Of a stretch of 50,382 nt of DNA, positions 15,046 through 41,375 are shown piece by piece (position 1 is the first letter of the stretch; every line of letters starts with the position of its first letter). Below the pieces are notes generated by a model, which did not search any database, was not told the origin of the DNA, and saw only the letters and a program-made list of their open reading frames with translations. The stretch is taken from the IMG/VR virus record IMGVR_UViG_3300037634_004340, positions 1 through 50,382 of that record; one strand, 5' to 3'. A program made the position numbers and the translations under genes. The DNA comes from a virus. Taxonomy: Duplodnaviria > Caudoviricetes.

Positions 15046-15245
15046 TAAGCTACTCCAATTACATCACTCATTACATATTTAGCTAACTCTTGTGGCAATT
15101 CAATATCTAAATCTTCAACAGTAAATAATATCACTTCATCTCCTTCGTCAAGTACTTCTATATCTGTTACAGCGCCAGTTTTAGTATTAAATCTTAATGC
15201 TAATATTAGCTCTTTTTCCATATTTACTCCAAATCTTAATTTCAT
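15045..15245 (-). CDS. Small hypothetical protein
   Basis: 66-aa acidic ORF, TAATG-coupled to TerS. Confidence 0.55.
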   Translation of the reverse strand: MKLRFGVNMEKELILALRFNTKTGAVTDIEVLDEGDEVILFTVEDLDIELPQELAKYVMSDVIGVA

Positions 15246-15259
15246 CGGGATACAGTTCT

Positions 15260-15480
15260 CCCCTGAGCACTAAAGTACTTTTTAAAAAATTTTAATTTTA
15301 AATTTCACTTAAGGCCAGTAATAGCTCCCATACCTTTAGCTTATAATAAAACAATTTTTACTGGTTATCGGAGAAAACTCAGTCTACTATTTTGAAGACC
15401 TACAATCCGACTTCTGACCCATTTAGCAGAACCATCTCAGGGGTACTAACTGGGTGATAACTAAATAATAGTTACCAGTG
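15260..15480 (-). ncRNA. Structured leader RNA of the packaging operon (candidate)
   Basis: Long-range CCCCTGAG/CTCAGGGG and ACTGGT/ACCAGT pairings that cross each other, plus internal hairpins; begins just after a promoter-like site. Confidence 0.4.
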
Positions 15481-15485
15481 GGAAT

Positions 15486-15514
15486 AATATACAATGACTT
15501 CTATATTTTAACAA
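15486..15514 (-). promoter_or_regulatory. Putative leftward promoter
   Basis: TTGTTA-N17-TATATT on the minus strand at the start of the structural operon. Confidence 0.55.
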
Positions 15515-15630
15515 AGGTTTTAAAAATAGGAGGATTTTGGTGTATAGAGTTATTATTTACCCTACCCCCCTATCGGGGGGATTATGATATATATAATTAA
15601 GTTATTTTTGATTTCATTTTTATTGTTTTT

Positions 15631-15894
15631 ATGTATAATTATGGAGTTTATATGGCAATAGTCATTGATTGGGCTGAACGTTTTATGAGTCTTGTAGATT
15701 TATATCATGATCAGCATAATGCAGCACCACAGTATAGTTATAAGAGTAGAATAACTAAGACCAAAGTCTTAAGTAAGTACAGTATTAAGATGGAGTTCAT
15801 AGATAATCTAACAGAGATGGCTATACTATGTGATGATCAAGCAGTAAATGATAAGATAGACAAACTCATTCAAAAGTATGAGAAGCAACGTTAA
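15631..15894 (+). CDS. Hypothetical early protein (likely start 15652)
   Basis: First rightward ORF; GGAG RBS precedes the ATG at 15652. Confidence 0.55.
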   Translation: MYNYGVYMAIVIDWAERFMSLVDLYHDQHNAAPQYSYKSRITKTKVLSKYSIKMEFIDNLTEMAILCDDQAVNDKIDKLIQKYEKQR

Positions 15895-16057
15895 CCTTAA
15901 CCTGACCGAAATGTCATTAAACTATTTTTTCCTTATGTGTTTATGTATGTATTAGTACCAACATAGACCCAACATTGTATAAGTAATCTTAATTGGTTTA
16001 TGTTACTTGTATAATTTAGCCTGTCTTAAAGAACCCGATAGGAGTATTCCACCAAAA

Positions 16058-16105
16058 GCAAGATAAAGGTGTACATCTCACCCAAGAGGATAAAATGGGT
16101 CTTGC
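16058..16105 (+). ncRNA. Pseudoknotted RNA motif, copy 1
   Basis: GCAAGA/TCTTGC outer stem; inner hairpin with ACCCAA loop complementary to downstream TGGG; similar to 17241-17307. Confidence 0.45.
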
Positions 16106-16207
16106 AAAGATTTAATTTCTAAGGTAAAACCATTCAGACCTTTTGCAACAATGGACAACACTGATTATGTATTGCAAGGACATAATTAGATAGAAAGGAG
16201 CCTTGCT

Positions 16208-16261
16208 ACTCTTAATGCAGCCTGATGACGGTCACAAGCCCGTGTAATGCAGAGTGGGAGT
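16208..16261 (+). ncRNA. Twister self-cleaving ribozyme (P1 type)
   Basis: ACTCT-TAA-TGCA-GCC...ACGGTCACAAGCCCGT...TGCA-GA-GTG-GGAGT matches the twister consensus: UAA cleavage loop, P2 UGCA/UGCA, L4 UCACAAGC, and a T1 pseudoknot with a compensatory CAC/GUG. Confidence 0.85.
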
Positions 16262-16286
16262 TTATATTTAAATAAACGGAGGTATA

Positions 16287-16466
16287 GTGAAAAGAAAGAT
16301 ATTCTTTACACATTATAAACGGAGAACTGGATCTAGCAAGAATTGTAATAATGCTTGGGAACGAGTATTAATACGTGAGAAGGGTTCTAAAATTAGAGCT
16401 ATTAGAAAAGCATTGATAGCTATTCAAAATGTAGGTAAACAAAAACAATTATCTAAAGAGGTATAA
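16287..16466 (+). CDS. Small basic hypothetical protein (59 aa)
   Basis: GGAGGT RBS, GTG start, stop overlaps the next ATG (TAATG); below the ORF-track cutoff. Confidence 0.55.
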   Translation: MKRKIFFTHYKRRTGSSKNCNNAWERVLIREKGSKIRAIRKALIAIQNVGKQKQLSKEV

Positions 16467-16984
16467 TGACTATTTTAACCAATGGCGCAGTAGTAATTAA
16501 AGCTAAAGAACAATCTTTAGTATTTCCTGAAATTGTGCATGATGATCATAATATTTCATTCGATCATATGCATTTTATTCAAACTAATCCTGAATTACTA
16601 TTATTACCTGTAGGAACACGTATTGCTAAACTCTTCAAATTACCTGATGGTATGGAAAGAGTACAAAGTGCTTTATATGGTCCTAGTGCAGGTGATAAAC
16701 CTATTAAGGAAAGTGAAGTAATTTATGAAAAACGTGTAACATGTACTAAATGTCATTCAGCACGTCGAGGTTATAGCAGAATGGTAGATAAACCTACTAG
16801 GCCTGCTAATAACATTGTAGTTATTGGTATAATAGGTAAAGTAGCATTCACTATCTATGGTACTCAAGCCAATGCTGTTAGCCCTAAAGAACCATGGGAC
16901 AGTGGTTGTACTGATTCTGTTGAAGATTATGAATATTCAAAGAATTTTTGGGCAATACATGCTTTAAGTATGCATGAAAATTAA
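16466..16984 (+). CDS. Hypothetical phage protein
   Basis: 172 aa with motif-like LYGPSAGD, SRMV, TIYG, PKEPWD, FWAIHAL and a CTKC insert. Confidence 0.7.
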   Translation: MTILTNGAVVIKAKEQSLVFPEIVHDDHNISFDHMHFIQTNPELLLLPVGTRIAKLFKLPDGMERVQSALYGPSAGDKPIKESEVIYEKRVTCTKCHSARRGYSRMVDKPTRPANNIVVIGIIGKVAFTIYGTQANAVSPKEPWDSGCTDSVEDYEYSKNFWAIHALSMHEN

Positions 16985-17240
16985 ATCTTTCTTTAGGATA
17001 AATGAGACTACAGTGAGCTGTGTGCATGGCACTGACGCAATAATCAGTAGTATATTTAAAATAATTTATCTTTTAGGATTACAAATCAATAAGCTCTTTA
17101 AGAGGTTAGTCGACGCCTTGATGAGAGCTTAATGATTATGTTGCATAATGTCAAGTTTTGCAAACGCATGTTAATTAGAACACCTGCAGAAGGTAAGTAT
17201 AATTTATCGGGGGAGTGCGAGAATCTTTCCCACAATAAGT

Positions 17241-17307
17241 CCTCTTGCTTATAAAAGCGTATGCATCCTACCCAAGGGTCCTATGGTATAGTTGGGGTGG
17301 CGAGAGG
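17241..17307 (+). ncRNA. Pseudoknotted RNA motif, copy 2
   Basis: CCTCTTGC/GCGAGAGG outer stem; ATCCT-ACCCA-AGGGT hairpin whose loop pairs with downstream TGGG. Confidence 0.45.
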
Positions 17308-17688
17308 CAAGAATTGAGAGGTATGGAATATTGCCTATTAAGACTTCTATACAGTGATATATTCTCATAGAACAGTATAGAGCACCTCTCTTTTAGTTTA
17401 ATCGGACTGCGATTAATACGAGATGGATTATAAAAATGTGTTATTGCATTTTATTATTCTTCTTTTTTTGAAAAGTAGGGGTAGACTACACGGCAGGCCA
17501 AGGCTGAGCATGAACATACCCCGAAAATTTATAAATAGGCATAATTAGTATTGTCATTATATGTAGCGCATTGGTATCTCAATGAACATAATGTGAGCCA
17601 ATACATGAGAATTATGCCTAGAATTATTAAAATACAAAGTAGTTTTAACTACATTTTGTCCACTAATATATATAATAAACTGGACATA

Positions 17689-17724
17689 TTAGGTTACTTT
17701 TTAGGTTACTTTTTAGGTTACTTT
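17689..17724. repeat. Three perfect tandem 12-bp repeats TTAGGTTACTTT
   Basis: Read directly at 17689, 17701 and 17713. Confidence 0.95.
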
Positions 17725-17782
17725 TAGAACGTATCCTTTGGGAAAAACAATGAGCTAATGTAAGAGAATTGTGTCCAGATTT

Positions 17783-18163
17783 AGATGAAAGCGTTATAAT
17801 TAAAGAATAATTAACTTTATTTATAATGACTTAGAAACCTGTGTATTGTACGAAGATTGCAAGCAGGTAATCAGTTAGAGTAGTTGTACTCGCTCCGGTT
17901 ATCAAATGATAAAGAGAACGATTAATCAACGAACTGATGTAGTGTGATAAAAAGACTGATAGTCTTCAACCTTATTAGATGTGTTTACGCCAACTCTCTC
18001 TGCGGGCTGCACATACTTTCAATTAACTGTGATGGTTATAAGCAATGTATTACCTCAGCTAGGTGATATAAGTTTAGAGCGACAGCTTAAAGGAAGGATA
18101 AGGAAGCAATTATGAGAGCGCATTTACAAGTATATCAGAGTCTTGTCTAAGATTCTTTCATCT
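17783..18163 (+). ncRNA. Large (~380 nt) multibranch structured RNA candidate
   Basis: Terminal 9-bp stem AGATGAAAG/CTTTCATCT, nested CTTAGA/TCTAAG and many internal helices; no ORF of 60 aa or more. Confidence 0.55.
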
Positions 18164-18197
18164 TTAACTTTAAGTTGTCAATGTTATTAAAATAAAT

Positions 18198-18297
18198 GGA
18201 GCTTTCATAGAGGAATCATAGAGTTGTTGATTTTCAATTCTACCCAGGATAAAGATGTGTTGATTTTCATATCTCCTATGCTCAAGGTTGAAAGTCC
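18198..18297 (+). ncRNA. Twin-hairpin RNA with identical UUGAUUUU loops
   Basis: TAGAGTTG-TTGATTTT-CAATTCTA and AGATGTG-TTGATTTT-CATATCT, enclosed by CATAG/CTATG and CTTTCA/TGAAAG. Confidence 0.6.
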
Positions 18298-18588
18298 TAT
18301 ATAATTAACGATTTGAAATATGTATACATTAAGTTGAGGGATTACGAGCCCAAGTATACAAAACTTGCTAGCATGCCAAGGGAGAGACTTATGAAATCAC
18401 CGGTGGGTGAGATCCAAGCATGCTAAACATTAACACCATTCTAATGGTGTTCGGCTATGGAGGAAAGTGAGGTGTTCTAACGTATTTCGCTACCTAGGAT
18501 AATAAAAATTCTTTAATGAGGTATATTACCCAGAAAAAGAACCTTAAACCCTCCTCGCTGTGATTTTATATAAAAAAAAAGAGGTGTA

Positions 18589-18714
18589 ATGATAGAATAT
18601 TATATAGCAATTATGATTGGATTTATAGCAGGTTATTTTGTAGCCTGTTTAATGATGATAGCAAAAGGAAATACAAAAATAGATATGGATGTCCATAGCT
18701 GGAGAAATAAATGA
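18589..18714 (+). CDS. Small single-pass membrane protein (41 aa)
   Basis: GAGGTG RBS; MIEYYIAIMIGFIAGYFVACLMMIAK hydrophobic helix. Confidence 0.6.
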   Translation: MIEYYIAIMIGFIAGYFVACLMMIAKGNTKIDMDVHSWRNK

Positions 18715-18881
18715 GACAATTTAAACGAAAAAAAGAAATCCATCATCAACCTTGTGAGAATTATAATTGTATTAATTATTATAATACTTTATATAAGGAT
18801 GCTAATGGTAAGTGTAAGCCTTGTAATATCGTAGAAAAGGCTAAATCTAAAACAACCAATAAGGAGCTAAATGTTAGTTAA
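18711..18881 (+). CDS. Small Cys4 zinc-finger-like protein (56 aa)
   Basis: GGAG RBS, ATGA overlap, C-x4-C-x14-C-x2-C. Confidence 0.5.
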   Translation: MRQFKRKKEIHHQPCENYNCINYYNTLYKDANGKCKPCNIVEKAKSKTTNKELNVS

Positions 18882-19254
18882 AAAGCAGGAAAAAATAAGT
18901 GCTAGAGGTACAACTTTATATCCATTAAGAAGTAATGTACCAGCACCAGTTACAATTGAAAATACTAGATTATTAGGTTTTGTTAAAAGAAGAGCTGTTG
19001 ATTACATGCTTACAATGAAACGAGGCCAATCATTCTTAGTTGCAGGATTAACAAAAAAAGGTAATACTAAATTTGCAACAGTTAAAGAATGGATTAAAGA
19101 TGCACATAGACAATATTGTCGATTACATAAAATTGATGCTCCACGAGGAATAGATTTCTCAAAGAAAACTCCAATAGAATTTATAGCTCAAAATGTTGAG
19201 GATAAAATCCCAAAAGGAACTATAAAAGGAGTTAGAGTGTGGAGAGTAAAATAA
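18871..19254 (+). CDS. Small basic putative DNA-binding protein
   Basis: MKRGQSFLV...GVRVWRVK pattern seen in small phage DNA-binding proteins; AAGGAG RBS. Confidence 0.5.
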   Translation: MLVKKQEKISARGTTLYPLRSNVPAPVTIENTRLLGFVKRRAVDYMLTMKRGQSFLVAGLTKKGNTKFATVKEWIKDAHRQYCRLHKIDAPRGIDFSKKTPIEFIAQNVEDKIPKGTIKGVRVWRVK

Positions 19255-19453
19255 GAGGATCATGCGATAATTATCATAATTGCAATAGAGTCATACCTCC
19301 TCTGTTGTTACTTACAATGATCCTCTCCTATTCTTTAGGAAGCGAAATGAGGTAATTTATAAGGCAGATTCAGCAATTTAACATTGGAATTTTCATTTCC
19401 TCCAAACTTTGAGTCTGCCTTATTATTAACGGAATAAAAACGAAAGAAGAATT

Positions 19454-21370
19454 ATGAATGATATTATATCAATTTATAAACAAGGGCAAAATATACAATT
19501 GCCTAGTAATTTAGCTAATTTTAGAAATGTTACTATTTCAGATAGAGATAGAAGAGAGTATATATGTCAAAATCTAGGAATTATATTAAATTATTATTTA
19601 GGTTGGCATACAAGTACTGCATCTTTTGAAGCCGGAATTATTGCAACAGGTGACATGAATCAGTATCAATTAGAAAAATATAATAGTATTGCACCTATTC
19701 GTATTACTCCTTCATTTAGATTGGCCCCGGGTGAAGCAAAAAGAGTAGCTCAAAGATTAAAGTATGTACCAATGGTATGGTCAAAAGTAAGACATGGTTG
19801 GTATAGTAACTGTGATAGATATATAAAAGCTAATGAAGATCTTATTGTTAAAGATACTCAAACTCCTAGTGTTATAATTAATAAATATAAATTTAGAGGA
19901 AGTAGAAATAACTCCTTTAGAAATAATAATATAGATGTTAATACTGAGTTTTGGAATCTTCAAAGTGAACATTGGGAACAATCTACACAGAGAAGTGAAC
20001 AAAGTAGAATTGAAAATACTTATTATCATAGTAATAGAGATAGAGCATATGAGGATCTTTATTTAAGAGATTTTATTAATCCAAATACAGGAAATAATAA
20101 TTGGAGATATAGTTGGGATAGAAATTCATCTTCAGAATCATCACTTATAAACTTACAACATTATACAATTCAAAGTTTTTGTGCTGATGTGTTCAATTTA
20201 CTTAAAGAATCATTAACAATTAGAAGAAATACTCCTGAAATAGAATATAATGATGAAGAAGATTATACTCAAATGAGAGAGTTTCTTCTTAATCAAATAT
20301 CTGAAATTGATAGATGTAACACAATTGTTGAAAATATAGCAAGTATAAGAGAAGTGATATTAACTAAGTATCGAGGTTCTATTAAAATGTATATGAAATT
20401 TATATTAGAAGAACCACATATTGATATTAGTCATCCTTCTGGTAGCAGTGAGTATTCTTCTGTAACTAGGAATATAAAAGATATTAATGGTAATATTTCT
20501 GATTTCATAGGAGTTATTCAATTTGAATTAAGTCTTATAAATAATAAATTTAGAAGAAGAAATGTTATATTTTGTGGATATAATGATAATTCTCATGTAA
20601 ATCCTGGATTATATAATACAGCTAATCGTGATTCAAGAATAGCTAGAGTTATTAGAGGTATATTTAATTGTTTTACTTTAGATAGTCTCCAAAATAATAC
20701 TTGTCTTAGTGAATATGAACATGATATTATGTCTTCTATTAAAAGATTAGACTATTTAACAATGCTTATTAATATTGTTAGCTGGTATACTGTTTATGTA
20801 CCAGGTAGAACTAATCCTTATAGACATCCAAGACAATTATTCTTTGGTATTCCAAATGATATTCCTGAATGGTATAAAAGTCAGCATGATAGTAGTGTTG
20901 CAGCATGCGAAGCTCTTGTTATGACTGAATATGGTACAGGAGAAGCACGAAATGATAGTGAAACAGATATACTTAGACGTGTTACTGATGATAATTTAAA
21001 AGCATTATTGTTAAATCATTGTCATAATTGTTTTCATAATACTGATTGTCGTGTTAATTCTTATGCAAAAGGGATTGTTTATGGTGACAATGAAGTTGCT
21101 TATCAAGAAGCATTAATAGCACGTGAAGGGGCAATACAAATGCAAGAAGCGCTTGATCCTGGTGTAGCAGCTAGAGAGATTGAAGAAGAATCTGAATTAA
21201 GTCACAGTGAAGTTCAAGAGATTATTGAAGAAATTGTTGATACAGATCCTAGGCCTGCACATAGAAGAGTTGAACAGGTTATAGAATATGATGATCATGT
21301 AGTTCCGATTGAAACTGATCAAGAACGTACAATGAGATTAATGTCCGCCTGGAGTCAGGCAGAAAGGTAA
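19454..21370 (+). CDS. Large protein with a putative divergent E2 (UBC-like) domain and a Cys-rich region
   Basis: Beta-strands, then HVNP...NTCLSEY (Cys417), helices and SWY..Y...TNPY; distal C...CHNC..C; first gene of the JAB/E1/Ubl operon. The E2 call rests mainly on context. Confidence 0.45.
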   Translation: MNDIISIYKQGQNIQLPSNLANFRNVTISDRDRREYICQNLGIILNYYLGWHTSTASFEAGIIATGDMNQYQLEKYNSIAPIRITPSFRLAPGEAKRVAQRLKYVPMVWSKVRHGWYSNCDRYIKANEDLIVKDTQTPSVIINKYKFRGSRNNSFRNNNIDVNTEFWNLQSEHWEQSTQRSEQSRIENTYYHSNRDRAYEDLYLRDFINPNTGNNNWRYSWDRNSSSESSLINLQHYTIQSFCADVFNLLKESLTIRRNTPEIEYNDEEDYTQMREFLLNQISEIDRCNTIVENIASIREVILTKYRGSIKMYMKFILEEPHIDISHPSGSSEYSSVTRNIKDINGNISDFIGVIQFELSLINNKFRRRNVIFCGYNDNSHVNPGLYNTANRDSRIARVIRGIFNCFTLDSLQNNTCLSEYEHDIMSSIKRLDYLTMLINIVSWYTVYVPGRTNPYRHPRQLFFGIPNDIPEWYKSQHDSSVAACEALVMTEYGTGEARNDSETDILRRVTDDNLKALLLNHCHNCFHNTDCRVNSYAKGIVYGDNEVAYQEALIAREGAIQMQEALDPGVAAREIEEESELSHSEVQEIIEEIVDTDPRPAHRRVEQVIEYDDHVVPIETDQERTMRLMSAWSQAER

Positions 21371-21373
21371 GAT

Positions 21374-22312
21374 ATGGATGATAAATTCATAATGGCCCAA
21401 AAAGACTGGGATAAAATTATAGCTTATTCAAAAATGAGTTATGACAAATGGAAAACTGAAATCGGCGGCATGTGTGTCGCCCTTTTCGATGAAAAAAATA
21501 AAATTATGGTTATTTCAGATCCTGTAATTGGTAAACAAGAAGTATCTAGTACTCTTTGTACATTAGATAAGGAATGGCTTGCTGATTATTATGTAGAAAT
21601 GGCTGTAAAATATGGTACAAAAGTTAGATTTGTTTGGTGGCATAGTCATCACACAATGGGTGTAAGTTGGAGTGGTACTGATACTGATACAATGCAAGAG
21701 TTTAATCAAGGTGATTACTCTATGTCTTTAGTAGTTAATTTAGCAGAAAATCATACATTTAGAATAAGCTGGTGGAAACCTACATCTGGATATATTGATA
21801 CTAAATTAAAAGTATTAAAACCTGAATTTCAAGTAACTAAAGAAATGCAAGGAATTTTTGATGAATTAGTTACAAGACCAGCAAAAAGTATTACTAAAAT
21901 TAATACTAATATTTATAATAATGGTTGGAGTAATGCAGGATGGAGAAATCAATATAAACAGCCAGGTAATTATGGTCCAGGTTATGTTGATGCTCAGTTG
22001 ATGGATAGAACACAGACTCTTCAAGAGAAGTTTTGCGATACAATGGAAAAACTTTTAGATGAGGCGTTTACATATCAAAAGAAATGGCCTGATTTTGAGG
22101 AAGAATGGAAAGAAATTATAATAGATGCTGGAAAGCATGATATAGTTATTGAAGAATTTCCTAAATCAGAATTTGTTGAACTTACAGTAAAAGGAGAATT
22201 TCCTGATGCAACAGACTACTTTGAAAGCCCTGACCCTGAACTCTTTCTCACAAGAGGATGTACCGATGGATATGGGAATCCGCTACAGGAAAATCTGTTC
22301 AGAAATAGATAA
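21374..22312 (+). CDS. JAB/MPN+ (JAMM) metalloisopeptidase
   Basis: Intact EIGG...WWHSHHTMGVSWSGTD (E, HxH, S, D) motif. Confidence 0.9.
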   Translation: MDDKFIMAQKDWDKIIAYSKMSYDKWKTEIGGMCVALFDEKNKIMVISDPVIGKQEVSSTLCTLDKEWLADYYVEMAVKYGTKVRFVWWHSHHTMGVSWSGTDTDTMQEFNQGDYSMSLVVNLAENHTFRISWWKPTSGYIDTKLKVLKPEFQVTKEMQGIFDELVTRPAKSITKINTNIYNNGWSNAGWRNQYKQPGNYGPGYVDAQLMDRTQTLQEKFCDTMEKLLDEAFTYQKKWPDFEEEWKEIIIDAGKHDIVIEEFPKSEFVELTVKGEFPDATDYFESPDPELFLTRGCTDGYGNPLQENLFRNR

Positions 22313-22934
22313 ACATCATTACAGCATATTTGGTTGCGGAGCTATAGGTAGTTCCGCAGCTGTATGTCTTGCTAAACATAATGCTAGGCATTTTTATCTT
22401 TATGATAATGATACAGTTAGTCCAGAAAATATAGGTATTAGTATGTTTAGAGAATTTGACATAGGTGAATCTAAAGTTGAATCTCTGAAGGAAATACTTG
22501 AAATAGGTGGAACTAATAGTAAAATACAAGTACAACCTCATAAAGAGTGGTTAGATCAAGATTCCGCCTTTACAAGTTATAAAGATGGACTTAATATTGG
22601 TATTTTATGTTTTGATAATATGTATTCTCGTAAAGAGATTGCAGGTATATGTTTTAGAGATAAGTTTAATTATATAATAGATGCACGTATGGGTCGTGAA
22701 CAGATTCAGTTGTATACTGTTAAAAATATTAAAACTTATGAAAAATATTGGTATCCTGATTTTCAAGCAAGTAGTGATACTTGTGAAGAAAAAGGAACAC
22801 CAGATGTTAGTATGATTTCCGGATCACTTATAACATCACAAATCAGGAAAATTGTTAATAAACAACCTTATCCTGAAGAAGTTTGCTTTCACATTCCTAG
22901 CATGGCGCTAGAATGTAATACCATGGTAAAATAA
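22206..22934 (+). CDS. ThiF/E1-like adenylyltransferase (likely start 22266)
   Basis: GCGAIGS nucleotide loop, YDNDTV..ENI, K, CFDN...R and IIDARMG; candidate thioester Cys in DTCEEK. Confidence 0.92.
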   Translation: MQQTTLKALTLNSFSQEDVPMDMGIRYRKICSEIDKHHYSIFGCGAIGSSAAVCLAKHNARHFYLYDNDTVSPENIGISMFREFDIGESKVESLKEILEIGGTNSKIQVQPHKEWLDQDSAFTSYKDGLNIGILCFDNMYSRKEIAGICFRDKFNYIIDARMGREQIQLYTVKNIKTYEKYWYPDFQASSDTCEEKGTPDVSMISGSLITSQIRKIVNKQPYPEEVCFHIPSMALECNTMVK

Positions 22935-22946
22935 CAAGGAGGGCTT

Positions 22947-23153
22947 ATGCCTAATATACACTTAATGCACAACTCTGATAGCTTTGATCCAACAGATACA
23001 GAAGCTGTAACAGTTGGTGCTCTTAAAACAGAGCTTGGTGTACCTTCCACTTCTAGAGTTAACGTGAATACTGCAGTTGCGCAAGATTCCACCACATTGA
23101 ATGATGGTGATATTGTTGCAGTAGTTACAAAAGACAAAAAAGGTGGAAGATAG
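22947..23153 (+). CDS. Ubiquitin-like (beta-grasp) protein ending GG-R
   Basis: 68 aa; TVGALK helix, VNVN, LNDGDIVAVV, C-terminal KKGGR; AAGGAGG RBS. Confidence 0.85.
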   Translation: MPNIHLMHNSDSFDPTDTEAVTVGALKTELGVPSTSRVNVNTAVAQDSTTLNDGDIVAVVTKDKKGGR

Positions 23154-32217: not shown

Positions 32218-32874
32218 TTACTTATGCACTTTCTTTAAAAATTCTTTAGGTATCCCACCTGCTATTCCATAGTTATATACCAGCATATCACTATCATCAT
32301 AAAGAGATTTGCCTCTTAAATCGCTAATTTTTTCCATCTTCTCAAATTTACTTTTAGGGATTTCAAATTCTAAAACAGTCACCTTTTTTCCCTTTTTCCC
32401 CCATATTCTTGCTTCAGCAAAATTATTACTAACCCAAGCAGTTCCTTTGGATAGATCATCCTTTCCTGTTGAAGGATTAAATCTACTATAATCTGAGCCT
32501 ACAAACTTACCTTCTTTGACCATTTTGCCCGAATGCCACTTATCTACCCCTCTATATAAAGTCACCATTTCTTCACCAGCTTCTTTAGCGGCCTTTAAAG
32601 CTCTTTTACCAGCAACAAACTGTCCAATAATAGGAATAGCTGAAGCTCCTGACAATACAGCTTCTCCAAACTCTCCTTCAGCAGCATATAATAATGCATC
32701 CGCTGCATCAGCCACATTCCCATATCCAGGGGTAAAACCAGCAGCCATTAAAGCTGTATGAAGACCTTCAGTGCTAGTATCACTCTCTTGCTTAAAAAGA
32801 TTAGCAATAGTTTTGTCTGGCTCTGCAACTTGTAGCATATTATTAAAAGCTTCTGTGTCTATTTTATCTGGCAT
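32218..32874 (-). CDS. Polymorphic-toxin-like protein: pre-toxin TG domain plus ADP-ribosyltransferase-like C-terminus
   Basis: GFTPGYGNVADAADALLYAAEG...SAIPIIG (PT-TG-like), then TLYRG...WVS...A..W...VLEFEIP (ART R-S strands). Confidence 0.6.
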   Translation of the reverse strand: MPDKIDTEAFNNMLQVAEPDKTIANLFKQESDTSTEGLHTALMAAGFTPGYGNVADAADALLYAAEGEFGEAVLSGASAIPIIGQFVAGKRALKAAKEAGEEMVTLYRGVDKWHSGKMVKEGKFVGSDYSRFNPSTGKDDLSKGTAWVSNNFAEARIWGKKGKKVTVLEFEIPKSKFEKMEKISDLRGKSLYDDSDMLVYNYGIAGGIPKEFLKKVHK

Positions 32875-35800
32875 TATTTAGGGCAAGCTCTTGCAGCTTT
32901 ATTAAACTCATTAAAAGAATCTCTTACTGACCCTGAAGATTTCTGACTCTCTTTTATATCACGGCCTTGCTTTATAAACTTACGCAGCATACTTAATCTA
33001 TATTCACTTAATAATGCTAATGGTTTTATTGAAGCTCCACCAGATGAACCTGCCATTAATGCTAATTCAGGGCTCATGCTATAACCACTTATCTCAGAAA
33101 CACCTTCTTCGCCTATTCCTTTAGTTATTACTTTACCAAGACCCATCTCTGTTAACTTCTGACGAACACCTTCTTGCATAAGATGATAAGATATAGGATC
33201 TAAATAGTTATTTTGCATCATTAACTGATTAGTATAAGATAACGCTGTCTCTAGCTTTTTATAGTCAGGGCCTTTATGATTTAATAGCTTTGTATTTATA
33301 AGATTTCTAAAAAACTCTATATTAGTATCATATTCAGGACCCATTCCAAAGACATCTTTATTAAACACGCCTTTTTCAGTATTTATAGACTCATATCTAT
33401 CCCAAGTATTTACAAGTTTACGACTATATCCAGGAACATTATTAATAATACCGAGTATACCCTGATCATTTGTTGGAATTAATCCAAAATTACCGTCAAA
33501 GAAATTACTATAAGCAGAATAACGCTTAGTTAAGTGCTCTATTGTAAGTTTTAAATTGTTTTTTTCTTGATGATTTGTCTCATTATTAAACTTATCTAGT
33601 AAAAACTTAACAACTCTTTTAAACCTACCAGACGCTTTAGAACTAACAGCTATGGGATTACCGTTATATATACCTATTGTAGTCTCAGCTTTAGTAGGCA
33701 TTGCATATTCTAGTAAAAAAGGCATACCATGATCCCCATAACCTTGATTTAACGCTAAAGCTAAATACTCTTCAACCTCCATAGGATCTTTTTTAGTACT
33801 CATCCTTTTTTTCATCATCTCAGGATTTATCTGAGTCATCTCTTGATATTCAGAAGTTGTGCCCGCACTAAAGTATTCACTATATTCTTGAGCAGTTTCA
33901 GCCTTTAAAGCTGTAACTTCTTTATAGAAATTACTTACATCGCCTGCAGTTGTAAACTTTTGACTTAACTCATGAAGAGTATACCATTGAACGGTCCCTT
34001 CAAGCATATCTTTATCTCTAGAAATATCTACAAACTTTATACCCTCTAAATACTTAGCATCACCTGTTTTTAAGTATTTATCCGGGAGATAGCCTTTTAA
34101 TACAGCTTCTTTTTCTTTAATTAATTCAATTAAAGATTCTATTCTGGCTTTTCTTAAATTCTCAGGAATCTCTTTATTTCTAGCTATATTTCCTATTTGT
34201 CTTTTCCAATATTTAATTATCTTAACATCTGAGTTTACCTTACCTGTTAATTGAGGTATGATTTCACGCATACGATCAGTTAAATTGCCTTCTCCAAATG
34301 ACTCTTTAGAGTAGATTATTTCATTAGCGACTGCCTGCATTTCTTTAAAGCCTTCACCCTGGAGTAAGATATTCCCTTTTCCATTATTACCTAAAGGATC
34401 GTTATGCATTATCTCTCTATAAATTCTTTCTACAACAGAGCCGTGATCACCTCCAGAAGCAGCAGTCATTATACCTTTATCCATAGCACCTTGCACTAAA
34501 GGAGACTCGTTCCACCATCTATACATATATTTGCCAGACGATTTATTGTCACCCCTCTCTCTCATTAACGCTGCATCATATTCCTCTAAAGCCTTCCCAT
34601 ATAACTTATCAGCTGTCTTGTTATATTTAGCCCTAAGTTTTTGATGAGGTTTAAACATTGATTTTACTAATTCATTGTCACCATGTTTAGCTTTTACGTT
34701 TTTATAAATTGTACTCGTCATGTCCTCTAAATGTCCAAAATAAGCATGAGTTATAGACATTATATCTTCATATTTTGCAGGACTACCTTGACCTGTATTA
34801 TCATATACTTCAGTACTTAAAGTTAATAATCTGCCATGCTCAGACATTAAAGTTTTTATAATAGTTCTTTCTTCAGGAGTTAAATCGTATTCTCCTGTAG
34901 GATTATCTTCAGTTTTAGGACCAAATTTTCTAAACAATCTAATTCTACTATTTTGAGGACCCTTAACACTTTGCGCCGTCTTTTGCGCAGATAAACTTGG
35001 AACATCGTCTTTAGATATAGATTTATCCATTATAGGGAAGAGATAATCATTTCTCCAATCCATCATCTTATTTACAATTCTTTGATCGACGCCTTTCCAA
35101 TAATCAATAATAAGCTGGGATTCTAAGGCAGATCTTTCAAAAAAGCTAGCATTGTCATAGTCTACAGATACAGTAAACTCATTCTCTCCATGTGTGTATT
35201 TTAATAAATCTTTACGCCCAGTTGTTTCATTAGTAGTGCCCAGCTCAGATAAATGGTTTACTAGCCTAACAGTTTTCTGTACAAGTCCTATGCCTTTTTT
35301 AAGCACTCTATTATTACCATCAAATGTATTCCAACCAGCATTTTCTCTCCCAGAATTAGATAAACTAAGTTCAGGAACCTTTCCTTCATAATTACCTGTA
35401 TTTACAGTATTTACCCAGTGCCGTTGTACTCTTTGATTGTGTTCCCAGGTACCTCTATTCATACCCCAAAAGAAGTCAATTTCATCTACATCGTAATCAC
35501 CTTCAAATATATTAAGAACATCAAAGTCATTAGCTATAGCTGTGTTTCCATGGTCTTTACCTAGGAATCCTTTAAGTCTAAGTATAGCTAAATCATTAGG
35601 CGTAGTCCTTGGATAACGTGTAGTCATTATACCTACAGCTAAGTCTTCCCCTAAGGCTTTATTTAATACTTCAATTTCTGAATGCAATAAGCCTAAGTTT
35701 CCATCAATAGTAGTTTTCTCCCAGAAATCTCTAAAGCTTAACTTAAGTCTATCGCCTTGCTTTTTCAGCAGAGCATCGTATTCGTTATACATTTTCTCAA

Positions 35801-38800
35801 GTCTTTGCTTTAAAGGGAATACTCCACCATTATTATCCACGATCCTAAGCTCTAAGTCTTTGGTTTTTCCTGAGAAATCAATCGAACCTCTAGCTGTAAA
35901 TTCAGGAAGCATTATATCGCCATGGAATATTTTAGTGTCTTCTTTCTCACCCGTACGAACAGTAGGCTTTAAATTTCTAAATTCAAAATTCTGTTTTAAT
36001 ACAGACTTACCACCATAAGCATTACCACCCATAATAGAAGGAGGGCTCATAATAGGATCTAGGAAGTGAGATTTCACCGCATCTATTAATACGCCTTCGC
36101 CTAACATCCTTACATCTCCACCCATAGCAGCTATTTGCATATGATGTCCTAAGTTCTCAAGACCTTCAGGGCTATTCTGCATATCTTCTAGCGTTGTACG
36201 AGGATCTATTTTTTTAAGTTTTAGTAAAGCTAATCTTTTATATAAACCATCTTCAACAAACTTAGCCATTGTACCATCTACTAATAATTTGTCTAATCTG
36301 TTTTTATAGAAAGCGTTATAATATTCACCAGCCTCAATAGATTCCATATAATTAGGAATAGAGTATGATTGCCTAGCTGGCATTTCAGCTTCAGGTATAA
36401 TGCTAATACCTACTTTATCTTTAGGTATAGTTCTAATAAACCGATCTATTTCCGAACCCTCTATTTTAATCATTTGATCAACAGTTTTATCTATATATCT
36501 AGGTCGATCCTGATTAGAGCTCTTTTCCCACTCCGCCTGAGATATAGCTGATTTCATCTTATCTGCACTGCGAGTTATAATCATATCTAAATTTTTACTT
36601 TTGCCAAATATCTCAGATTGAATATGAGGATCATATACAAACACTGTTTTAGCATACATCATATCATTTCCTTCACCATTAGATGATACGATAGGCTTAA
36701 AGACAGCAGCTCCAGTAGTTCCATAATACAGATTTAAAAAGTCAGCATAATCTTTAGAAATAAACGATATACTGTCATAACTAGACTCATCATTTCTGTC
36801 GCCAAGCATTTTCTTCCAACTAGTGCCTCTAAACTTTAATGCTTCCTCATTTCTTGTTGAAACTTTAGCATGATCTTTATCATTCCAAACTATATAGCCT
36901 AAATCTCTTTTTTCAAAACTTCTTAATAAATTCATATCAGAAACATTAGTTAAGCTTTTTCTTAATGCAACTAATAAATCAGCATCCATACGTCTAAACG
37001 ATGGAGTATGAAAAAGACTAACTCTCTTACTCATTTCAGCTAACTCTGGGCTATTCATCGTTAATGTTTCTAAGAATCGTCCTTGTACTTTACTGACAAG
37101 CATATCATTTATAATGATAGATCTCATTGCATCTTCATGTACAGCGCTCCAAGTTTTAGTCTTCTCGAGATTATCCATCATCTCTTTTAATCGACTGCCT
37201 TGTGGATTCTTCATATCTTTTTTATAATACGGTTTAAATATCTTTTCTCTATAAAGTTCAGCAACTTCTTTAAAACTAGACTCAGGAACACCAATTGGAT
37301 TTTTAGCATTACCCATACGAATAATAGCCATCCCTTTATGATCTCCAGTAGCTTCATCCCAAGTATATCTTTTTATAGTATCATAAAAATGTTTTTGTTG
37401 AGCCTCAGCAAACTGTTTACCTCGACGGTCCGTAGATACTGATGAATCATAATCTAATACATTTAGGGAAGCAGATTTTACCTTCCCTCCTTTAAAGTAA
37501 TGTGTAAAAGATTCGCCATTAACAAAGACATAAGGGATACCAGATTCATCTAGAAGATCCGTAAATGGACTTCTCTGCTGGTTTTTCATCTTAGACACAG
37601 GATCACCCCGGTTTACACTTAACTCAGGTTTAGAGATCGTTCCCTTTCTTAATATAAATATTTTTTGAACATCTCTTGAAGCTCTTATATATTCAGCTTG
37701 ATAGTTTGGATTAGATACAACTTCACTACCTGTGACTTTATTTCCACCTATAGTGAACTCCATTTGCTCTATAAGTCTTTCGTGTGGATTTTCATTTACA
37801 TCTTTAGTAGTTGGGTTATATAATGCTTTTTCTATTAAATCGTTTTGCTCTACAGCTTCTTGATATTTACTACCCATTCCTCGTTCTAATGGAAAATACT
37901 TCTCAAAGAAACCTTGTTGTGTCATAGCACTACTATGGTCTTTAAATTTAGATCGGACGTCTAAATCAATATCCGCTGAACTTATTTTATTCTCTATATC
38001 CGACATATATACGCCAGATTTTTGTAACCATTCCTGTAATTCTGATCTAACTTCAGCTTTTAGCTCTCCAGTATCAGTAAGGAAATCTTTATTTATAATA
38101 TATTCAAGAGTATTTTGTCTTTTATTAGTCGTTATAAGACCTTTACTTATCATATTAAAAAGTAAATCGTTAGGCCTTTCAGCATTTTCTACCCATTGAA
38201 CCAAACCATGTTTTAATGGATCTGCTCCATTTAATGTAGCAATAAAGTCTATTAAAGTTTCTTGAGCCTGTTGTTGCTGTTTTGCTTCAGATTTTCTTAT
38301 AATTGTATCTAAACCAATAGCTTCTTGTTTACTAACCCGAATACCTCTGCGTGTAACTCTATCAGACACAGTCGTAGTTATAGCCCCATCAAAGTCCATT
38401 ATAGATTCATCTAAATTTATAAATGACTTACCCTCATAAGTGGCTCTTTTTATTAAATTATATATATAATCATTATATCTTTTAGCTAGTTTATAATGAG
38501 TTGTCCTCCCGTCTAGAATAGATAAATCTATTTTTCTAACAGAGAAACCGGTACCACCATCAACTGTAGTACTGTAATTTGCAAATGGAAGTTCTAACCC
38601 AGATAAATCTGCAAGAATAGCGACATCATTATTAGTTATTTCTGTATTTTTTATAATTTCAGATGTAATTCTTTGAGTAATATTAGCCCTAAACATATCT
38701 AATATCTCTTTTTGAGTATTTATCTTATTGGCGTTTAAATATTCATTAAGTTCATGTATTTTTTCTACTTTAATTGTAACTTTATCTGTGGTATTTACAT

Positions 38801-41375
38801 TTATAGACTTATTCCCTTTAGTAGCTAATATACCTATAACTGATTTTAATAAAGCCTCTTCATTCCCACCTTTGTAATCAAGCTCTCCCTTGTCAATTTC
38901 TACATTATGGAATGAAAGTAAATCAAATAAAGGTAAATCTTCTTTTGTAGCATCTTTTCTATCAGCTCTTGGTTTTATTATACCTACATCTACAAGCCTG
39001 GATCGTAATTCACCAAACTTTTCATTTTTTGTATCATCAAAAAACTCAGATATTAAATCCATACTTTTATGACCATGTCTAATCATTAATGGAGCTGTAT
39101 AATGGTCCATCTCATTAAAGGTAAAGTTCAAAGATTTCTTTCCAGTATTAAACTTTTCATTAACACGTTGCTCTCCAAGTCTCACTTGCTCTACCATACT
39201 TCTAACTTGAGCTTCACTAGTTAATTCAGCATGCCATTCAGCTGGATTAGAGGTTATTTCACCTTTCATAATACCATTATTAATTTCTATTAATTTGTTT
39301 GTACTTTGTTGAGCTTTTAAAACAGTTTCAATTTCAAGTCCTTCATAATTACCTTTTTTAATAGCATCAAGTAGTCGCTGATTTATAGTTACCATTTCAG
39401 GCAATGTACCTAAACTTCCACTACTAGGATCATTTAAAGACCAATTGTCTGTAGAATTATTAAGTATTTCCCTAAGGCTATGCCCTAATTCACGCTCTAA
39501 AGAATCAGTCAATTCTTCAGTAGACTCTCTCATTATATCTTTAAAGTCTTGTAATGTCTTTATTTTTTTAGTGCCGAAAGAAACTTTTTTAATTACTCTT
39601 TCTATTTCAATCATTTCTTTTTCAGTAATTTGTGCTGTAGGTTTTACAGATAATTCTCCAGAGGCACCCGCAATCCATTTCATAAACTCATTAAATAAAG
39701 GTCTATCTACCTTAGATGCTCCTATTGTTGGAGATCCGTCTTTTGTACTTATTACTAAATCTTCATTATTCTCGCCTATTATACCTAATTCTCGGGCTTT
39801 ATCTCTAAGTTCTTTAAAAGCAGGATTTGTTAATGGATTAATACTTGCAAATTGATCTTCTGATAATGTAGGATATAAATCATACATATGTGTTTGTGGA
39901 GTACCGTGTACATGTAGTCCTCTTCGTAATGCTGACATTTTTTGCATATTCATATCAGGGGTAAGAGGTCTACCTTTTCTATTAATAAATGCTCCAATTA
40001 ATAAAGAAGTAGCTATATCTTCAGCAGGCATTTCATAGCCTTTAGATAAATCTATCATTGTTCTTGCATTCATTATTGCTGTACCGGCTATAACTCTAGG
40101 CCAATTAGCTAAAGTACTTTGGAAGTCTTCAGTTACAGCTGCTAGCATCATATCTCGGCCGTATTTTCTCTTTTGTCCTTCTAGAGCAGCTCTTAGTACT
40201 TCTGTAGCTTTTGCTTTATTTCCACCTACATGCGTTAATATATTACTCATAGGATCTTGAAGATTAATTTCCATTCCTTTATAAGATATAATAGATGATT
40301 CTCCGTTAAGCTGTAAGCTTTTACCTATTAATTCAGAATGCTTTTTCAATTCTGTTTCAGACAACCCTTTATATCTAGGCTTGGAAAATAAAGTTTTAAC
40401 TCCAGCCATAAAATCATCACTAGTAATAGAAGATTTACCTGCTGCAGGAAGTAACTTAAGTGTACCAAATGCAGCACCTACACCTACACCCCATAAAGGA
40501 GCTGTAAAATCATAAGGTCTATCGTCGTGAATTGAATGAGATACTTCCATAGCTGCGTCTATTAATCCAAACATAACACCTTCTTGAATCATACTTCCTA
40601 CTACAAAACCGAATTTATTAGGATGTCGCTTCATCATTAAATCAACAAAATCTTGCATAGGCCTTGTGCCTATGTTTTTATCGAACTGCTCTCTTATAAG
40701 TCTAGCTTGCTTGTGAGTTATATCGCCCCTTATAACACCACCCTTAACAACTTCTTTAATAGCTTTGCTAGCTGAATCACCCCAATTAGTAGCAACACCT
40801 TTAGCTGCTTCTGTAAACCTAGCTGTATGAGCTGTATGAATAAGTCTTTTCTTTATAGTCTTATCAACTAAGTTTTTAGCTGTTTTAGTACCACCCTCTT
40901 TAAATATTGTAGCACTAGTCTTCTTAACTATTTGGTCTACCGTCTCTGCCCCAACCTTCTTAATAATTGGCTTAGCTAATAAGCTTGTAGCTTTAGCACC
41001 AACTTTCATAGGAGCACCCCATATAAAACCTAGTGTACCACCAATAGCAGAGCCTACTTTACCAGGTATTGTTTGTGGAGTTAAATAATTTTCTTCCAGC
41101 TCTTTACCAAAAAGATAATTTGATGCAGGAGCTAAAGTTCCAAAAGCAGCTTCATCAGCAAAAGACCATAAACCTTGCCCTACCATATCTATAAGGGCAT
41201 TTCTCTTCTCACGAACTTGTACATCTTGTTTTACATCAAATTGGTTATAATCAGGTATTGCATCTGACTCCATGAAGTTTGGAGTTTTAAAGTATTCATC
41301 TAAAGTATTTGTTTGTATTCCACCTAAGCTATTCTCGTCTTCAGTGTTATAGTATACATCATATAAGCTTGGCAT
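32874..41375 (-). CDS. Giant virion-packaged double-psi beta-barrel RNA polymerase (crAss-like)
   Basis: 2833 aa; TTRYPRT about 40 aa before EGDYDVDE (DxDxD catalytic loop); YAKT and SADK upstream; hydrophobic N-terminal helices; sits in the ejection cluster. Confidence 0.8.
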   Translation of the reverse strand: MPSLYDVYYNTEDENSLGGIQTNTLDEYFKTPNFMESDAIPDYNQFDVKQDVQVREKRNALIDMVGQGLWSFADEAAFGTLAPASNYLFGKELEENYLTPQTIPGKVGSAIGGTLGFIWGAPMKVGAKATSLLAKPIIKKVGAETVDQIVKKTSATIFKEGGTKTAKNLVDKTIKKRLIHTAHTARFTEAAKGVATNWGDSASKAIKEVVKGGVIRGDITHKQARLIREQFDKNIGTRPMQDFVDLMMKRHPNKFGFVVGSMIQEGVMFGLIDAAMEVSHSIHDDRPYDFTAPLWGVGVGAAFGTLKLLPAAGKSSITSDDFMAGVKTLFSKPRYKGLSETELKKHSELIGKSLQLNGESSIISYKGMEINLQDPMSNILTHVGGNKAKATEVLRAALEGQKRKYGRDMMLAAVTEDFQSTLANWPRVIAGTAIMNARTMIDLSKGYEMPAEDIATSLLIGAFINRKGRPLTPDMNMQKMSALRRGLHVHGTPQTHMYDLYPTLSEDQFASINPLTNPAFKELRDKARELGIIGENNEDLVISTKDGSPTIGASKVDRPLFNEFMKWIAGASGELSVKPTAQITEKEMIEIERVIKKVSFGTKKIKTLQDFKDIMRESTEELTDSLERELGHSLREILNNSTDNWSLNDPSSGSLGTLPEMVTINQRLLDAIKKGNYEGLEIETVLKAQQSTNKLIEINNGIMKGEITSNPAEWHAELTSEAQVRSMVEQVRLGEQRVNEKFNTGKKSLNFTFNEMDHYTAPLMIRHGHKSMDLISEFFDDTKNEKFGELRSRLVDVGIIKPRADRKDATKEDLPLFDLLSFHNVEIDKGELDYKGGNEEALLKSVIGILATKGNKSINVNTTDKVTIKVEKIHELNEYLNANKINTQKEILDMFRANITQRITSEIIKNTEITNNDVAILADLSGLELPFANYSTTVDGGTGFSVRKIDLSILDGRTTHYKLAKRYNDYIYNLIKRATYEGKSFINLDESIMDFDGAITTTVSDRVTRRGIRVSKQEAIGLDTIIRKSEAKQQQQAQETLIDFIATLNGADPLKHGLVQWVENAERPNDLLFNMISKGLITTNKRQNTLEYIINKDFLTDTGELKAEVRSELQEWLQKSGVYMSDIENKISSADIDLDVRSKFKDHSSAMTQQGFFEKYFPLERGMGSKYQEAVEQNDLIEKALYNPTTKDVNENPHERLIEQMEFTIGGNKVTGSEVVSNPNYQAEYIRASRDVQKIFILRKGTISKPELSVNRGDPVSKMKNQQRSPFTDLLDESGIPYVFVNGESFTHYFKGGKVKSASLNVLDYDSSVSTDRRGKQFAEAQQKHFYDTIKRYTWDEATGDHKGMAIIRMGNAKNPIGVPESSFKEVAELYREKIFKPYYKKDMKNPQGSRLKEMMDNLEKTKTWSAVHEDAMRSIIINDMLVSKVQGRFLETLTMNSPELAEMSKRVSLFHTPSFRRMDADLLVALRKSLTNVSDMNLLRSFEKRDLGYIVWNDKDHAKVSTRNEEALKFRGTSWKKMLGDRNDESSYDSISFISKDYADFLNLYYGTTGAAVFKPIVSSNGEGNDMMYAKTVFVYDPHIQSEIFGKSKNLDMIITRSADKMKSAISQAEWEKSSNQDRPRYIDKTVDQMIKIEGSEIDRFIRTIPKDKVGISIIPEAEMPARQSYSIPNYMESIEAGEYYNAFYKNRLDKLLVDGTMAKFVEDGLYKRLALLKLKKIDPRTTLEDMQNSPEGLENLGHHMQIAAMGGDVRMLGEGVLIDAVKSHFLDPIMSPPSIMGGNAYGGKSVLKQNFEFRNLKPTVRTGEKEDTKIFHGDIMLPEFTARGSIDFSGKTKDLELRIVDNNGGVFPLKQRLEKMYNEYDALLKKQGDRLKLSFRDFWEKTTIDGNLGLLHSEIEVLNKALGEDLAVGIMTTRYPRTTPNDLAILRLKGFLGKDHGNTAIANDFDVLNIFEGDYDVDEIDFFWGMNRGTWEHNQRVQRHWVNTVNTGNYEGKVPELSLSNSGRENAGWNTFDGNNRVLKKGIGLVQKTVRLVNHLSELGTTNETTGRKDLLKYTHGENEFTVSVDYDNASFFERSALESQLIIDYWKGVDQRIVNKMMDWRNDYLFPIMDKSISKDDVPSLSAQKTAQSVKGPQNSRIRLFRKFGPKTEDNPTGEYDLTPEERTIIKTLMSEHGRLLTLSTEVYDNTGQGSPAKYEDIMSITHAYFGHLEDMTSTIYKNVKAKHGDNELVKSMFKPHQKLRAKYNKTADKLYGKALEEYDAALMRERGDNKSSGKYMYRWWNESPLVQGAMDKGIMTAASGGDHGSVVERIYREIMHNDPLGNNGKGNILLQGEGFKEMQAVANEIIYSKESFGEGNLTDRMREIIPQLTGKVNSDVKIIKYWKRQIGNIARNKEIPENLRKARIESLIELIKEKEAVLKGYLPDKYLKTGDAKYLEGIKFVDISRDKDMLEGTVQWYTLHELSQKFTTAGDVSNFYKEVTALKAETAQEYSEYFSAGTTSEYQEMTQINPEMMKKRMSTKKDPMEVEEYLALALNQGYGDHGMPFLLEYAMPTKAETTIGIYNGNPIAVSSKASGRFKRVVKFLLDKFNNETNHQEKNNLKLTIEHLTKRYSAYSNFFDGNFGLIPTNDQGILGIINNVPGYSRKLVNTWDRYESINTEKGVFNKDVFGMGPEYDTNIEFFRNLINTKLLNHKGPDYKKLETALSYTNQLMMQNNYLDPISYHLMQEGVRQKLTEMGLGKVITKGIGEEGVSEISGYSMSPELALMAGSSGGASIKPLALLSEYRLSMLRKFIKQGRDIKESQKSSGSVRDSFNEFNKAARACPK

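Follow-up and report, generated by a model that had tools for sequence, protein, structure and literature searches.

The 50,382-bp record of an uncultured marine phage (IMG/VR record IMGVR_UViG_3300037634_004340, estimated to be 92% complete and, at its full length, called the window below) contains at positions 16985–18560 a stretch that is, in our judgment, probably a genuine non-coding RNA island read from the plus strand. We picture this island not as one element but as a mosaic of separately exchangeable units set in fast-changing, AT-rich linkers. An initial annotation, made from the sequence without database searches, had described the stretch as an early-expressed array of eleven closed RNA modules, presumed to act as decoys, anti-defence RNAs, or ribozymes. 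That description stood in part: the non-coding appearance, the discrete cassettes, some compensatory changes, and the GOLLD, tRNA, pistol, and twister-like RNAs found in the equivalent region of relatives speak for it, whereas the stems occur at chance level and the folding scores (z, relative to shuffled sequence) are mixed. Early expression we infer from position; gene orientation flips at ∼15250–15630, so that the island begins ∼1.4 kb inside the rightward, replication-side block.

The island consists of blocks exchanged whole between near-identical genomes

Relatives of the window were gathered through its primase-helicase and an alignment of a 638-amino-acid (aa) protein, which gave four viral contigs and several metagenome contigs; searches with the 638-aa protein or an adjacent 172-aa protein singly returned zero direct relatives. 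One relative, L014, is 99% identical to the window in the flanks of the island and differs from it block by block within. L014 is missing 17316–17396 as well as three 12-nucleotide (nt) tandem repeats, carries 17535–17642 (hairpin B) after 17731–18167 (module C) where the window has B before C, and holds an inserted block of ∼531 nt, named X, before 18167. DNA run X3, which covers all of 16000–19600, shows the same joints, with B again located across module C. The borders of the exchanged blocks match three modules as originally annotated (17316–17390, 17536–17620, and 17783–18163). We conclude that near-identical genomes gain, lose, and rearrange these units as intact blocks.

Block-wise indels and reordering would also be produced if the stretch were functionless recombination debris, that is, decayed genes and the scars of repeated illegitimate recombination at a hot spot. 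A 16-nt duplicate of the start of B that flanks C in L014, the dispensability of the tandem repeats, the lineage-specific genes upstream, and the chance frequency of stems all fit such an origin. We nevertheless consider it improbable, because remnant protein similarity was absent in every frame (against relatives, Pfam, and PHROGs), because three units (B and the elements D and E described below) contain compensatory changes, because distant lineages share a 77-nt element at 96% identity, and because substitutions are kept out of the modules.

This last point comes from the alignment with L014, in which the modules differ at 7 of 955 positions and the linkers at 27 of 459 (Fisher p 1.7e-8), using module borders that had been drawn blind to L014. 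The seven module changes comprise one compensatory pair (two positions), two substitutions that form G·U pairs, and three (17568, 17807, and 18209) that are unpaired in the predicted folds. The compensatory pair is in B, where 17542 U>C and 17614 A>G lie on the two sides of one predicted pair and turn U-A into C-G. Both G·U-forming changes, 17537 A>G in B and 17498 C>U in hairpin M5 (where G-C becomes G·U), create their pairs on the plus strand and would give A·C on the minus strand. Natural changes within the units preserve base pairs.

The same substitutions bear on whether the stretch is a replication origin, in which iteron-like repeats and AT-rich DNA hairpins lie upstream of replication genes. 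The window does have the three tandem repeats, its linkers are as AT-rich as had been claimed (26.6% GC, compared with 39.1% in the modules), and a primase-helicase gene follows the island 6 kb downstream. However, G·U-creating substitutions make sense for plus-strand RNA only, the repeats are missing from the near-identical L014 and X3 and are therefore dispensable, and the minimum of cumulative GC skew falls outside the island, near 15200–15500. An origin at this site thus seems very unlikely.

The island does not appear to encode proteins

The absence of open reading frames (ORFs) was confirmed: under translation table 11, zero ORFs of at least 60 aa were present in 16985–18588, and stop codons numbered 31–46 in each of the six frames. 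We also rejected a recoded gene. Reading TAG as Q or TGA as W gave a frame of at most 91 aa, and reading TAA as Q gave scattered frames only, needing up to eight read-throughs.

Proteins of 37–58 aa, a size usual in early regions of phages, would have escaped the 60-aa cut-off, and several such small products might account for the stretch. Eight plus-strand ORFs in this size range lie in the island, two of which (16974–17132 and 17132–17254) are joined by a TAATG stop-start overlap, and real genes of 41, 56, and 59 aa border it. We scored these ORFs with a codon log-odds model trained on the window's long genes, for which the fifth percentile of true coding segments was 0.28. All 10 island ORFs (37–58 aa) fell below that percentile, at −0.38 to +0.08 per codon, and every one was exceeded by all 10 held-out neighboring genes, including those of 41, 56, and 59 aa, which scored 0.22–0.57. 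Ribosome-binding sites of the AGGAG/GAGGT type were present before 16466, 18589, and 18871 but absent before 16974 and 17132. None of the small ORFs matched a Pfam or PHROGs family at E < 0.001, and six-frame island peptides resembled those of relatives only at spots where the DNA itself is conserved, and there in several frames, which is not the pattern of translated conservation. With this evidence, a protein-coding role for the island is hardly to be expected.

Module C is the largest unit and is recovered alone from RNA libraries

Module C ends 1.3 kb upstream of the conserved 638-aa gene. Its copy in L014 differs at 1 of 381 positions, compared with 8 of 56 in the adjacent linker. In RNA libraries from three samples, module C was the sole part of the 3.6 kb from 16000 to 19600 that was recovered, as one short contig each (17914–18163, 17840–18077, and 17927–18119); such contigs prove neither transcription, strand, nor expression level, the uncovered parts do not indicate absent transcription, and the RNA and DNA runs had been chosen using words from the island itself. 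Twenty further runs with small shares of the stretch form no part of this evidence. One of these contigs stops at 18163, the annotated end of the module, six bases past an 8-bp hairpin (18138–18157) that is followed by a U-rich run, and this combination suggests an RNA 3' end. We propose, with modest confidence, that module C is a trans-acting structured RNA made during infection.

The limits on the RNA libraries are among several observations that weigh against an RNA island. The fold of module C is tentative: its z was −1.95 for the full unit, +0.42 for 17840–18163, and −1.32 on the minus strand, and the signal vanishes once the closing stem is left off. A search for divergent homologues found none (a core 17-mer gave one chance match, in a coding region without BLAST similarity), and the only copies found, such as that of L014, are near-identical and supply no covariation to read. 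For the island as a whole, the annotated stems were found where they had been placed, but stem counts alone do not put them beyond chance. There were 18 Watson–Crick inverted repeats of 7 nt within 130 nt, compared with 14.5 ± 4.0 in 300 dinucleotide shuffles, 71 of which reached at least 18, and the counts in four coding control stretches behaved in the same way. Mean plus-strand z in sliding 150-nt windows was approximately −0.7 in the island (n = 21) and approximately −0.9 in the mostly coding sequence downstream (n = 24); the thermodynamic stability of the island does not exceed that of its coding flanks. Judged by thermodynamics alone, the proposal would not survive the refuting condition that the initial annotation had set for it (folding no better than in shuffled controls). 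Two linkers next to rearrangement joints account for 24 of the 27 linker differences from L014, and the gene for the 172-aa protein nearby likewise shares 99.4% identity with its L014 counterpart, so mosaic recombination could mimic constraint; such mosaicism contributes to the difference between modules and linkers. Promoter or terminator signals in the island did not rise above those of shuffles, and two annotated modules, 17007–17050 and 18321–18360, had no support of any kind.

Among the 11 modules as first delimited, 7 had independent support (17241–17307, 17316–17390, 17478–17522, 17536–17620, 17783–18163, 18369–18425, and 18459–18554). Of the other 4, besides the two just named, 18198–18297 shows internal twin-hairpin covariation only and 17091–17130 a z-score only. 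In z-scores that are biased toward structure, the windows having been picked because their stems close, three modules reached −3 or lower (17091–17130, 17536–17620, and 18369–18425), four lay between −1.8 and −2.1, and four were above −1.3 and could not be told from shuffles, including 17007–17050 at +1.06. The annotated bias of G-U pairing toward the plus strand was confirmed in part: minimum free energy (MFE) was lower on that strand in 8 of 11 modules, and z was better there in 6 of 11. The list also omitted one conserved hairpin, at 18432–18451. The modules are single-copy, with no paralogous copies within the window, and no common linker motif rose above chance.

Database comparison gave the island no known identity. 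Rfam yielded only eukaryotic snoRNA and miRNA noise in 16800–18750, all at E > 1, and the hammerhead, pistol, hatchet, twister-sister, and HDV-like models had zero matches at E ≤ 10 inside 16985–18560. The window contains no tRNA by ARAGORN or Rfam RF00005; relaxed ARAGORN settings gave low-score calls mostly off the module borders.

Relatives carry GOLLD or RNA X in the same slot

An ORF-poor stretch lies upstream of the 638-aa homologue in L002–L005 and is absent in L017. GOLLD was found at the Rfam gathering score in L003 (183 bits), L004/L010 (159 bits), and L005/L019 (153 bits), and ends 1.25–1.7 kb upstream of the 638-aa homologue in L003–L005. tRNAs, which adjoin the relatives' GOLLDs, occur in L002, L003, and L004/L010 (one contig), and L002 has a pistol ribozyme (57.8 bits; gathering score 34.5), whereas the window has neither pistol nor tRNA.

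The block inserted in L014 proved to contain a second large RNA, X, which is also present in L002 and L008. Double changes were seen in 36 of its 142 pairs. RNA X is 90% identical between L014 and L002, and both of their 638-aa proteins are only ∼37–40% identical to that of the window, and in L002 it ends 1.3 kb upstream of the 638-aa homologue. No Rfam match to X was found, and X was not detectable in the window.

We asked whether module C could be a divergent form of either RNA and rejected both. No match to GOLLD (RF02032) at E ≤ 10 was present in 16800–18750 or 17760–18180; the conserved GOLLD hairpin GAUGAGU.UAACUCAUUGGCAUUG was not found in the window even when 3 mismatches were allowed; and a covariance model of the GOLLD 3' domain did not reach its threshold of 150 bits there. 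The GOLLD block AAGUAAAAUAGCAU matches 10 of 21 loci, all of them GOLLD-carrying contigs, with none in L001 (a locus taken from the window) or L014. With filters off, the covariance model of X (R2) scored no more than 8.6 bits anywhere in the window. Module C itself has no Rfam match.

Phage RNA islands with GOLLD, tRNAs, and ribozymes are already known. What is new is that unrelated large RNAs apparently take the place of GOLLD at a fixed locus, together with a group of elements absent from Rfam 15 (C, D, E, X, and the one of 77 nt); a keyword search of the open-access literature, without supplements, found no paper on GOLLD being swapped for other large RNAs. Tentatively, and as a possibility we would not rank as high as the island itself, C in the window and X in L014, L002, and L008 may be new classes of large phage RNA that replace GOLLD at a fixed swap slot for functionally equivalent 'ornate' RNAs, possibly RNA-only assemblies, while the small units beside them in a twister/pistol neighborhood, the 96%-conserved 77-nt element and the mobile hairpin M4, may count among them one or more self-cleaving ribozymes or processing signals that have yet to be described.

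If GOLLD, X, and C are interchangeable at one locus before the same genes, they would form a natural complementation series, which suggests a common task. The conserved neighbors encoding the 638-aa, 312-aa, and ThiF/ThiS-like proteins would then be possible partners, and the RNAs would offer new sequences for structural work.

Elements D and E are covarying structures beside downstream genes

The 3' part of the island forms element D (18369–18560, ∼195 nt), which consists of the hairpins D1 and D2 and the multi-helix domain D3. Its counterpart in L002 is 72% identical. Double changes were present in 8 of 51 pairs and 99.3% of cells pair, values reached in 0 of 500 shuffles, although they come from two independent lineages only and from a structure derived from the same sequences. 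As a control, we slid the pairing partners, which gave 37–49% pairing and 0 double changes. Many G·U pairs fix the plus strand. This comparative analysis shows that D has a predicted fold of three covarying domains. Within it, D1 has compensatory changes in 5 of 17 pairs and a z of −3.33, and its invariant 5' flank AAACUUGCU occurs once in the window. Covariance model R1 recovered D in its entirety from the window, L014, and L002 alone; an exact scan with its core returned only contigs already known among viral contigs and 0 matches in genome contigs. Element E, downstream of the annotated coordinates, has compensatory changes in 6 of 28 pairs among the window, L014, and L002; in L014 its 14-bp hairpin keeps the stem while the interior of the loop is deleted, and the 150-nt window at 19275 has a z of −4.2.

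The location of these elements raises the question of whether the whole stretch is a cis-acting spacer, whose hairpins serve as RNase III/E-type processing sites, terminators or attenuators, or 5' leaders that tune the flanking early genes. Element D lies 23 nt upstream of the ribosome-binding site of a 41-aa ORF and, in L002, directly before the start of its 56-aa homologue; D1 occurs alone in L008/L017, in the latter ∼25 nt upstream of the ribosome-binding site of a 635-aa gene; E directly precedes the 638-aa gene; and the long, almost perfectly paired stems of B and E fold to a similar degree on either strand. On the other hand, a spacer leaves unexplained why a 381-nt block is recovered alone in RNA libraries and why large covarying RNAs (GOLLD and X) occupy the same slot in relatives. 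It also does not account for a 77-nt element that is 96% identical in a phage whose common proteins are 25–71% identical to those of the window. Sequestration of the Shine–Dalgarno sequence by D3 was not seen: in the MFE folds of both lineages the closed D3 domain leaves that sequence free. We consider a cis-acting spacer unlikely as an account of the entire stretch. Element D is a ready candidate for a new cis-regulatory or structured leader RNA.

A proposed organization and its relation to known systems

In the RNA island that we favor, the large RNA C would occupy the GOLLD slot, and short units (the 77-nt element, M4, M5, and B) together with the leaders D and E would complete it. The units may serve as processing signals, sites of protein binding, or catalytic RNAs. 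The island would be transcribed rightward together with neighboring genes, and processing at ribozyme and hairpin sites would break the transcript into stable pieces. Module C, and elsewhere X, would act in trans during infection in the role of GOLLD, with D and E serving as putative structured leaders of the downstream genes.

GOLLD and ROOL are large, abundant, and intricately folded RNAs of phages and prophages; bioRxiv 10.1101/2024.12.08.627333 describes them as phage-encoded RNAs of unknown function, often near tRNA islands, that form RNA-only cages. Module C is likewise a large ORF-free phage unit, and its distance from the conserved downstream gene matches that of GOLLD in three sister lineages. 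It differs in being 381 nt long, whereas GOLLD exceeds 800 nt, in lying in a window without tRNA, and in matching neither GOLLD at E ≤ 10 nor any Rfam family, ROOL included, at E below 1.

A second comparison is with ribozyme-rich intergenic regions of phages, in which twister, hammerhead, pistol, and hatchet ribozymes gather. Hammerhead and twister genes commonly associate with phage genes and with other ribozymes, an association by which pistol was discovered, and neighborhoods of that kind have earlier yielded new self-cleaving ribozyme classes, according to PMC4604425. The twister-like match in the window, L003, and L014 and the pistol in L002 are features in common with such regions. In contrast to them, 16800–18750 has no ribozyme family match at E ≤ 10, and the twister match of the window is below the gathering score and one hairpin short. 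The island supplies short, sharply bounded candidates in a ribozyme-rich neighborhood.

Two classical phage arrangements also invite comparison. The early transcript of T7 has RNase III processing hairpins between its genes, and the island resembles it in having stem-loops of tens of nucleotides along an early polycistronic region; unlike them, its units are exchanged as cassettes, D is multi-helix and covarying, and one unit is 381 nt long. T4-type phages have mobile gene cassettes flanked by promoter-stem-loop (PeSL) elements. The likeness here is that small units come, go, and change order block by block within a hyperplastic early region, and the difference is that the cassettes of the island are without ORFs and that a repeated flanking motif was not found.

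Smaller units and neighboring features

Coordinates of the island units and of the related elements are collected in Table 1.

Table 1 Units of the island and associated RNA elements (window positions unless a relative is named)
Feature	Position	Strand	Remarks
Twister-P1-like candidate ribozyme	16209–16260	+	RF03160; 725 nt upstream of the island, in ORF-poor stretch 15895–16286
Hairpin M2	17091–17130	+	8-bp closing stem around inner 5-bp stem
Ultraconserved 77-nt element (annotated as 17241–17307)	17237–17312	+	Conserved in L005/L019
Hairpin cassette M4	17315–17390	+	Stem-closed, 75 nt; exchanged between genomes
Hairpin M5	17478–17522	+	1/45 positions differ from L014
Long hairpin B (M6)	17536–17620	+	Compensatory change; block relocation
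Three tandem 12-nt repeats, core TTAGGTTAC	17689–17725	+	In linker; 0/100 shuffles reach 3 copies
Module C, largest unit	17783–18163	+	381 nt
Module M8, twin hairpins	18198–18297	+	Present in L014, absent from L002; z −1.20
D1 hairpin, invariant 5' flank AAACUUGCU	18369–18425	+	Kept in window, L014, L002, and L008/L017
D2 hairpin	18432–18451	+	8-bp stem in window, L014, and L002; one A-U to G·U change (plus strand)
D3 multi-helix domain (annotated GGAGG/CCTCC module)	18452–18560	+	Closing helices: 3 compensatory pairs relative to L002
Element E, putative structured intergenic leader before the 638-aa gene	19255–19423	+	Outside the annotated coordinates
RNA X, ∼480 nt	L014 2225–2720; L002 2420–2912; L008 30–480		Covariation
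Pistol ribozyme/tRNA sites in the early region of relatives	L002 212–272; L003 1030–1103; L004 3142–3216

The 77-nt element is 96% identical to L005 3885–3961 and to L019, in flanks that share no similarity. Its z was −1.28, and the sole hint of structure is one U·G to C-G change. No Rfam match was found, and a scan with its 20-mer core gave 0 matches in genome contigs and, among viral contigs, only the L005 contig.

The hairpins vary in how they fold and travel. M2 (z −3.62 on the plus strand, a value equaled in 1 of 200 shuffles; minus −1.36) has the same sequence in L014, and the three nearby differences in run X3 (17059, 17082, and 17147) all lie outside it. M4 (plus −1.80, minus −2.48) is missing from L014 and from the main contig of run X3, whose joint skips 17311–17396, and occurs in the same run on another contig, of 200 nt, where its flanks are unrelated and 3 positions differ; an exact 19-mer scan gave 0 matches. 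M5 (plus −2.09, minus −0.22) follows an 81-nt linker with 16 differences from L014, and B folds with a z of −3.13 on the plus and −3.80 on the minus strand. The two 22-nt hairpins of M8 (18220–18241 and 18253–18274) have a common 8-nt loop, UUGAUUUU, on stems that are different yet paired, a pattern that resembles paired protein-binding sites such as nut/boxB.

Upstream of the island, the sequence at 16209–16260 is a candidate twister-like self-cleaving ribozyme. It matched RF03160 with 54.5 bits, short of the 67.2 bits required by the gathering score (E 3.9e-11 in a scan of 15200–16500, E 3.5e-13 per genome). In the alignment, all pairs of P1 (4), P2 (4), and P4 (3) form and the middle hairpin is deleted; the conserved blocks UAA, GCC, GGUC.CAAGCCCG, and GUAA...GAG are present with one C>A change. 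RF03160 also matched at L003 212–299 (54.9 bits, upstream of GOLLD and tRNA) and at L014 15–66. Just 3' of this element is another indel hot spot, where L014 has a 376-nt insertion (92–467) relative to the window at ∼16285 that carries two overlapping ORFs of 72–73 aa.

The synteny of the downstream 638-aa, 312-aa, and ThiF-like genes is kept in all relatives, and the upstream genes are lineage-specific. The conserved block at 19454–23153 on the plus strand encodes the 638-aa and 312-aa proteins, for which neither a family nor a solved relative was found, followed by ThiF-like (22206–22934) and ThiS-like (22947–23153) proteins. This block possibly forms a ubiquitin-like or sulfur-carrier module, which would make it a candidate partner for the RNAs upstream.

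Elsewhere in the window, the plus strand also encodes a Sak4-like protein and a PD-(D/E)XK nuclease, and the minus strand encodes the small and large terminase subunits, a P22-type portal, and an SU10-type capsid protein. No DNA match to the window turned up in a set of 50,697 deposited phage records, and the large terminase subunit (TerL) is at most 27.5% identical to those of cultured phages among the 12 matches listed. The minus strand further carries a 2833-aa ORF at 32874–41375 for which PHROGs gave no family at E ≤ 1e-5; in podophages, giant virion proteins of similar length frequently turn out to be virion RNA polymerases. The best local folding signal in the 5 kb scanned was at 16275–16424 on the plus strand (z −5.05), outside the island and within the region of the 59-aa ORF.

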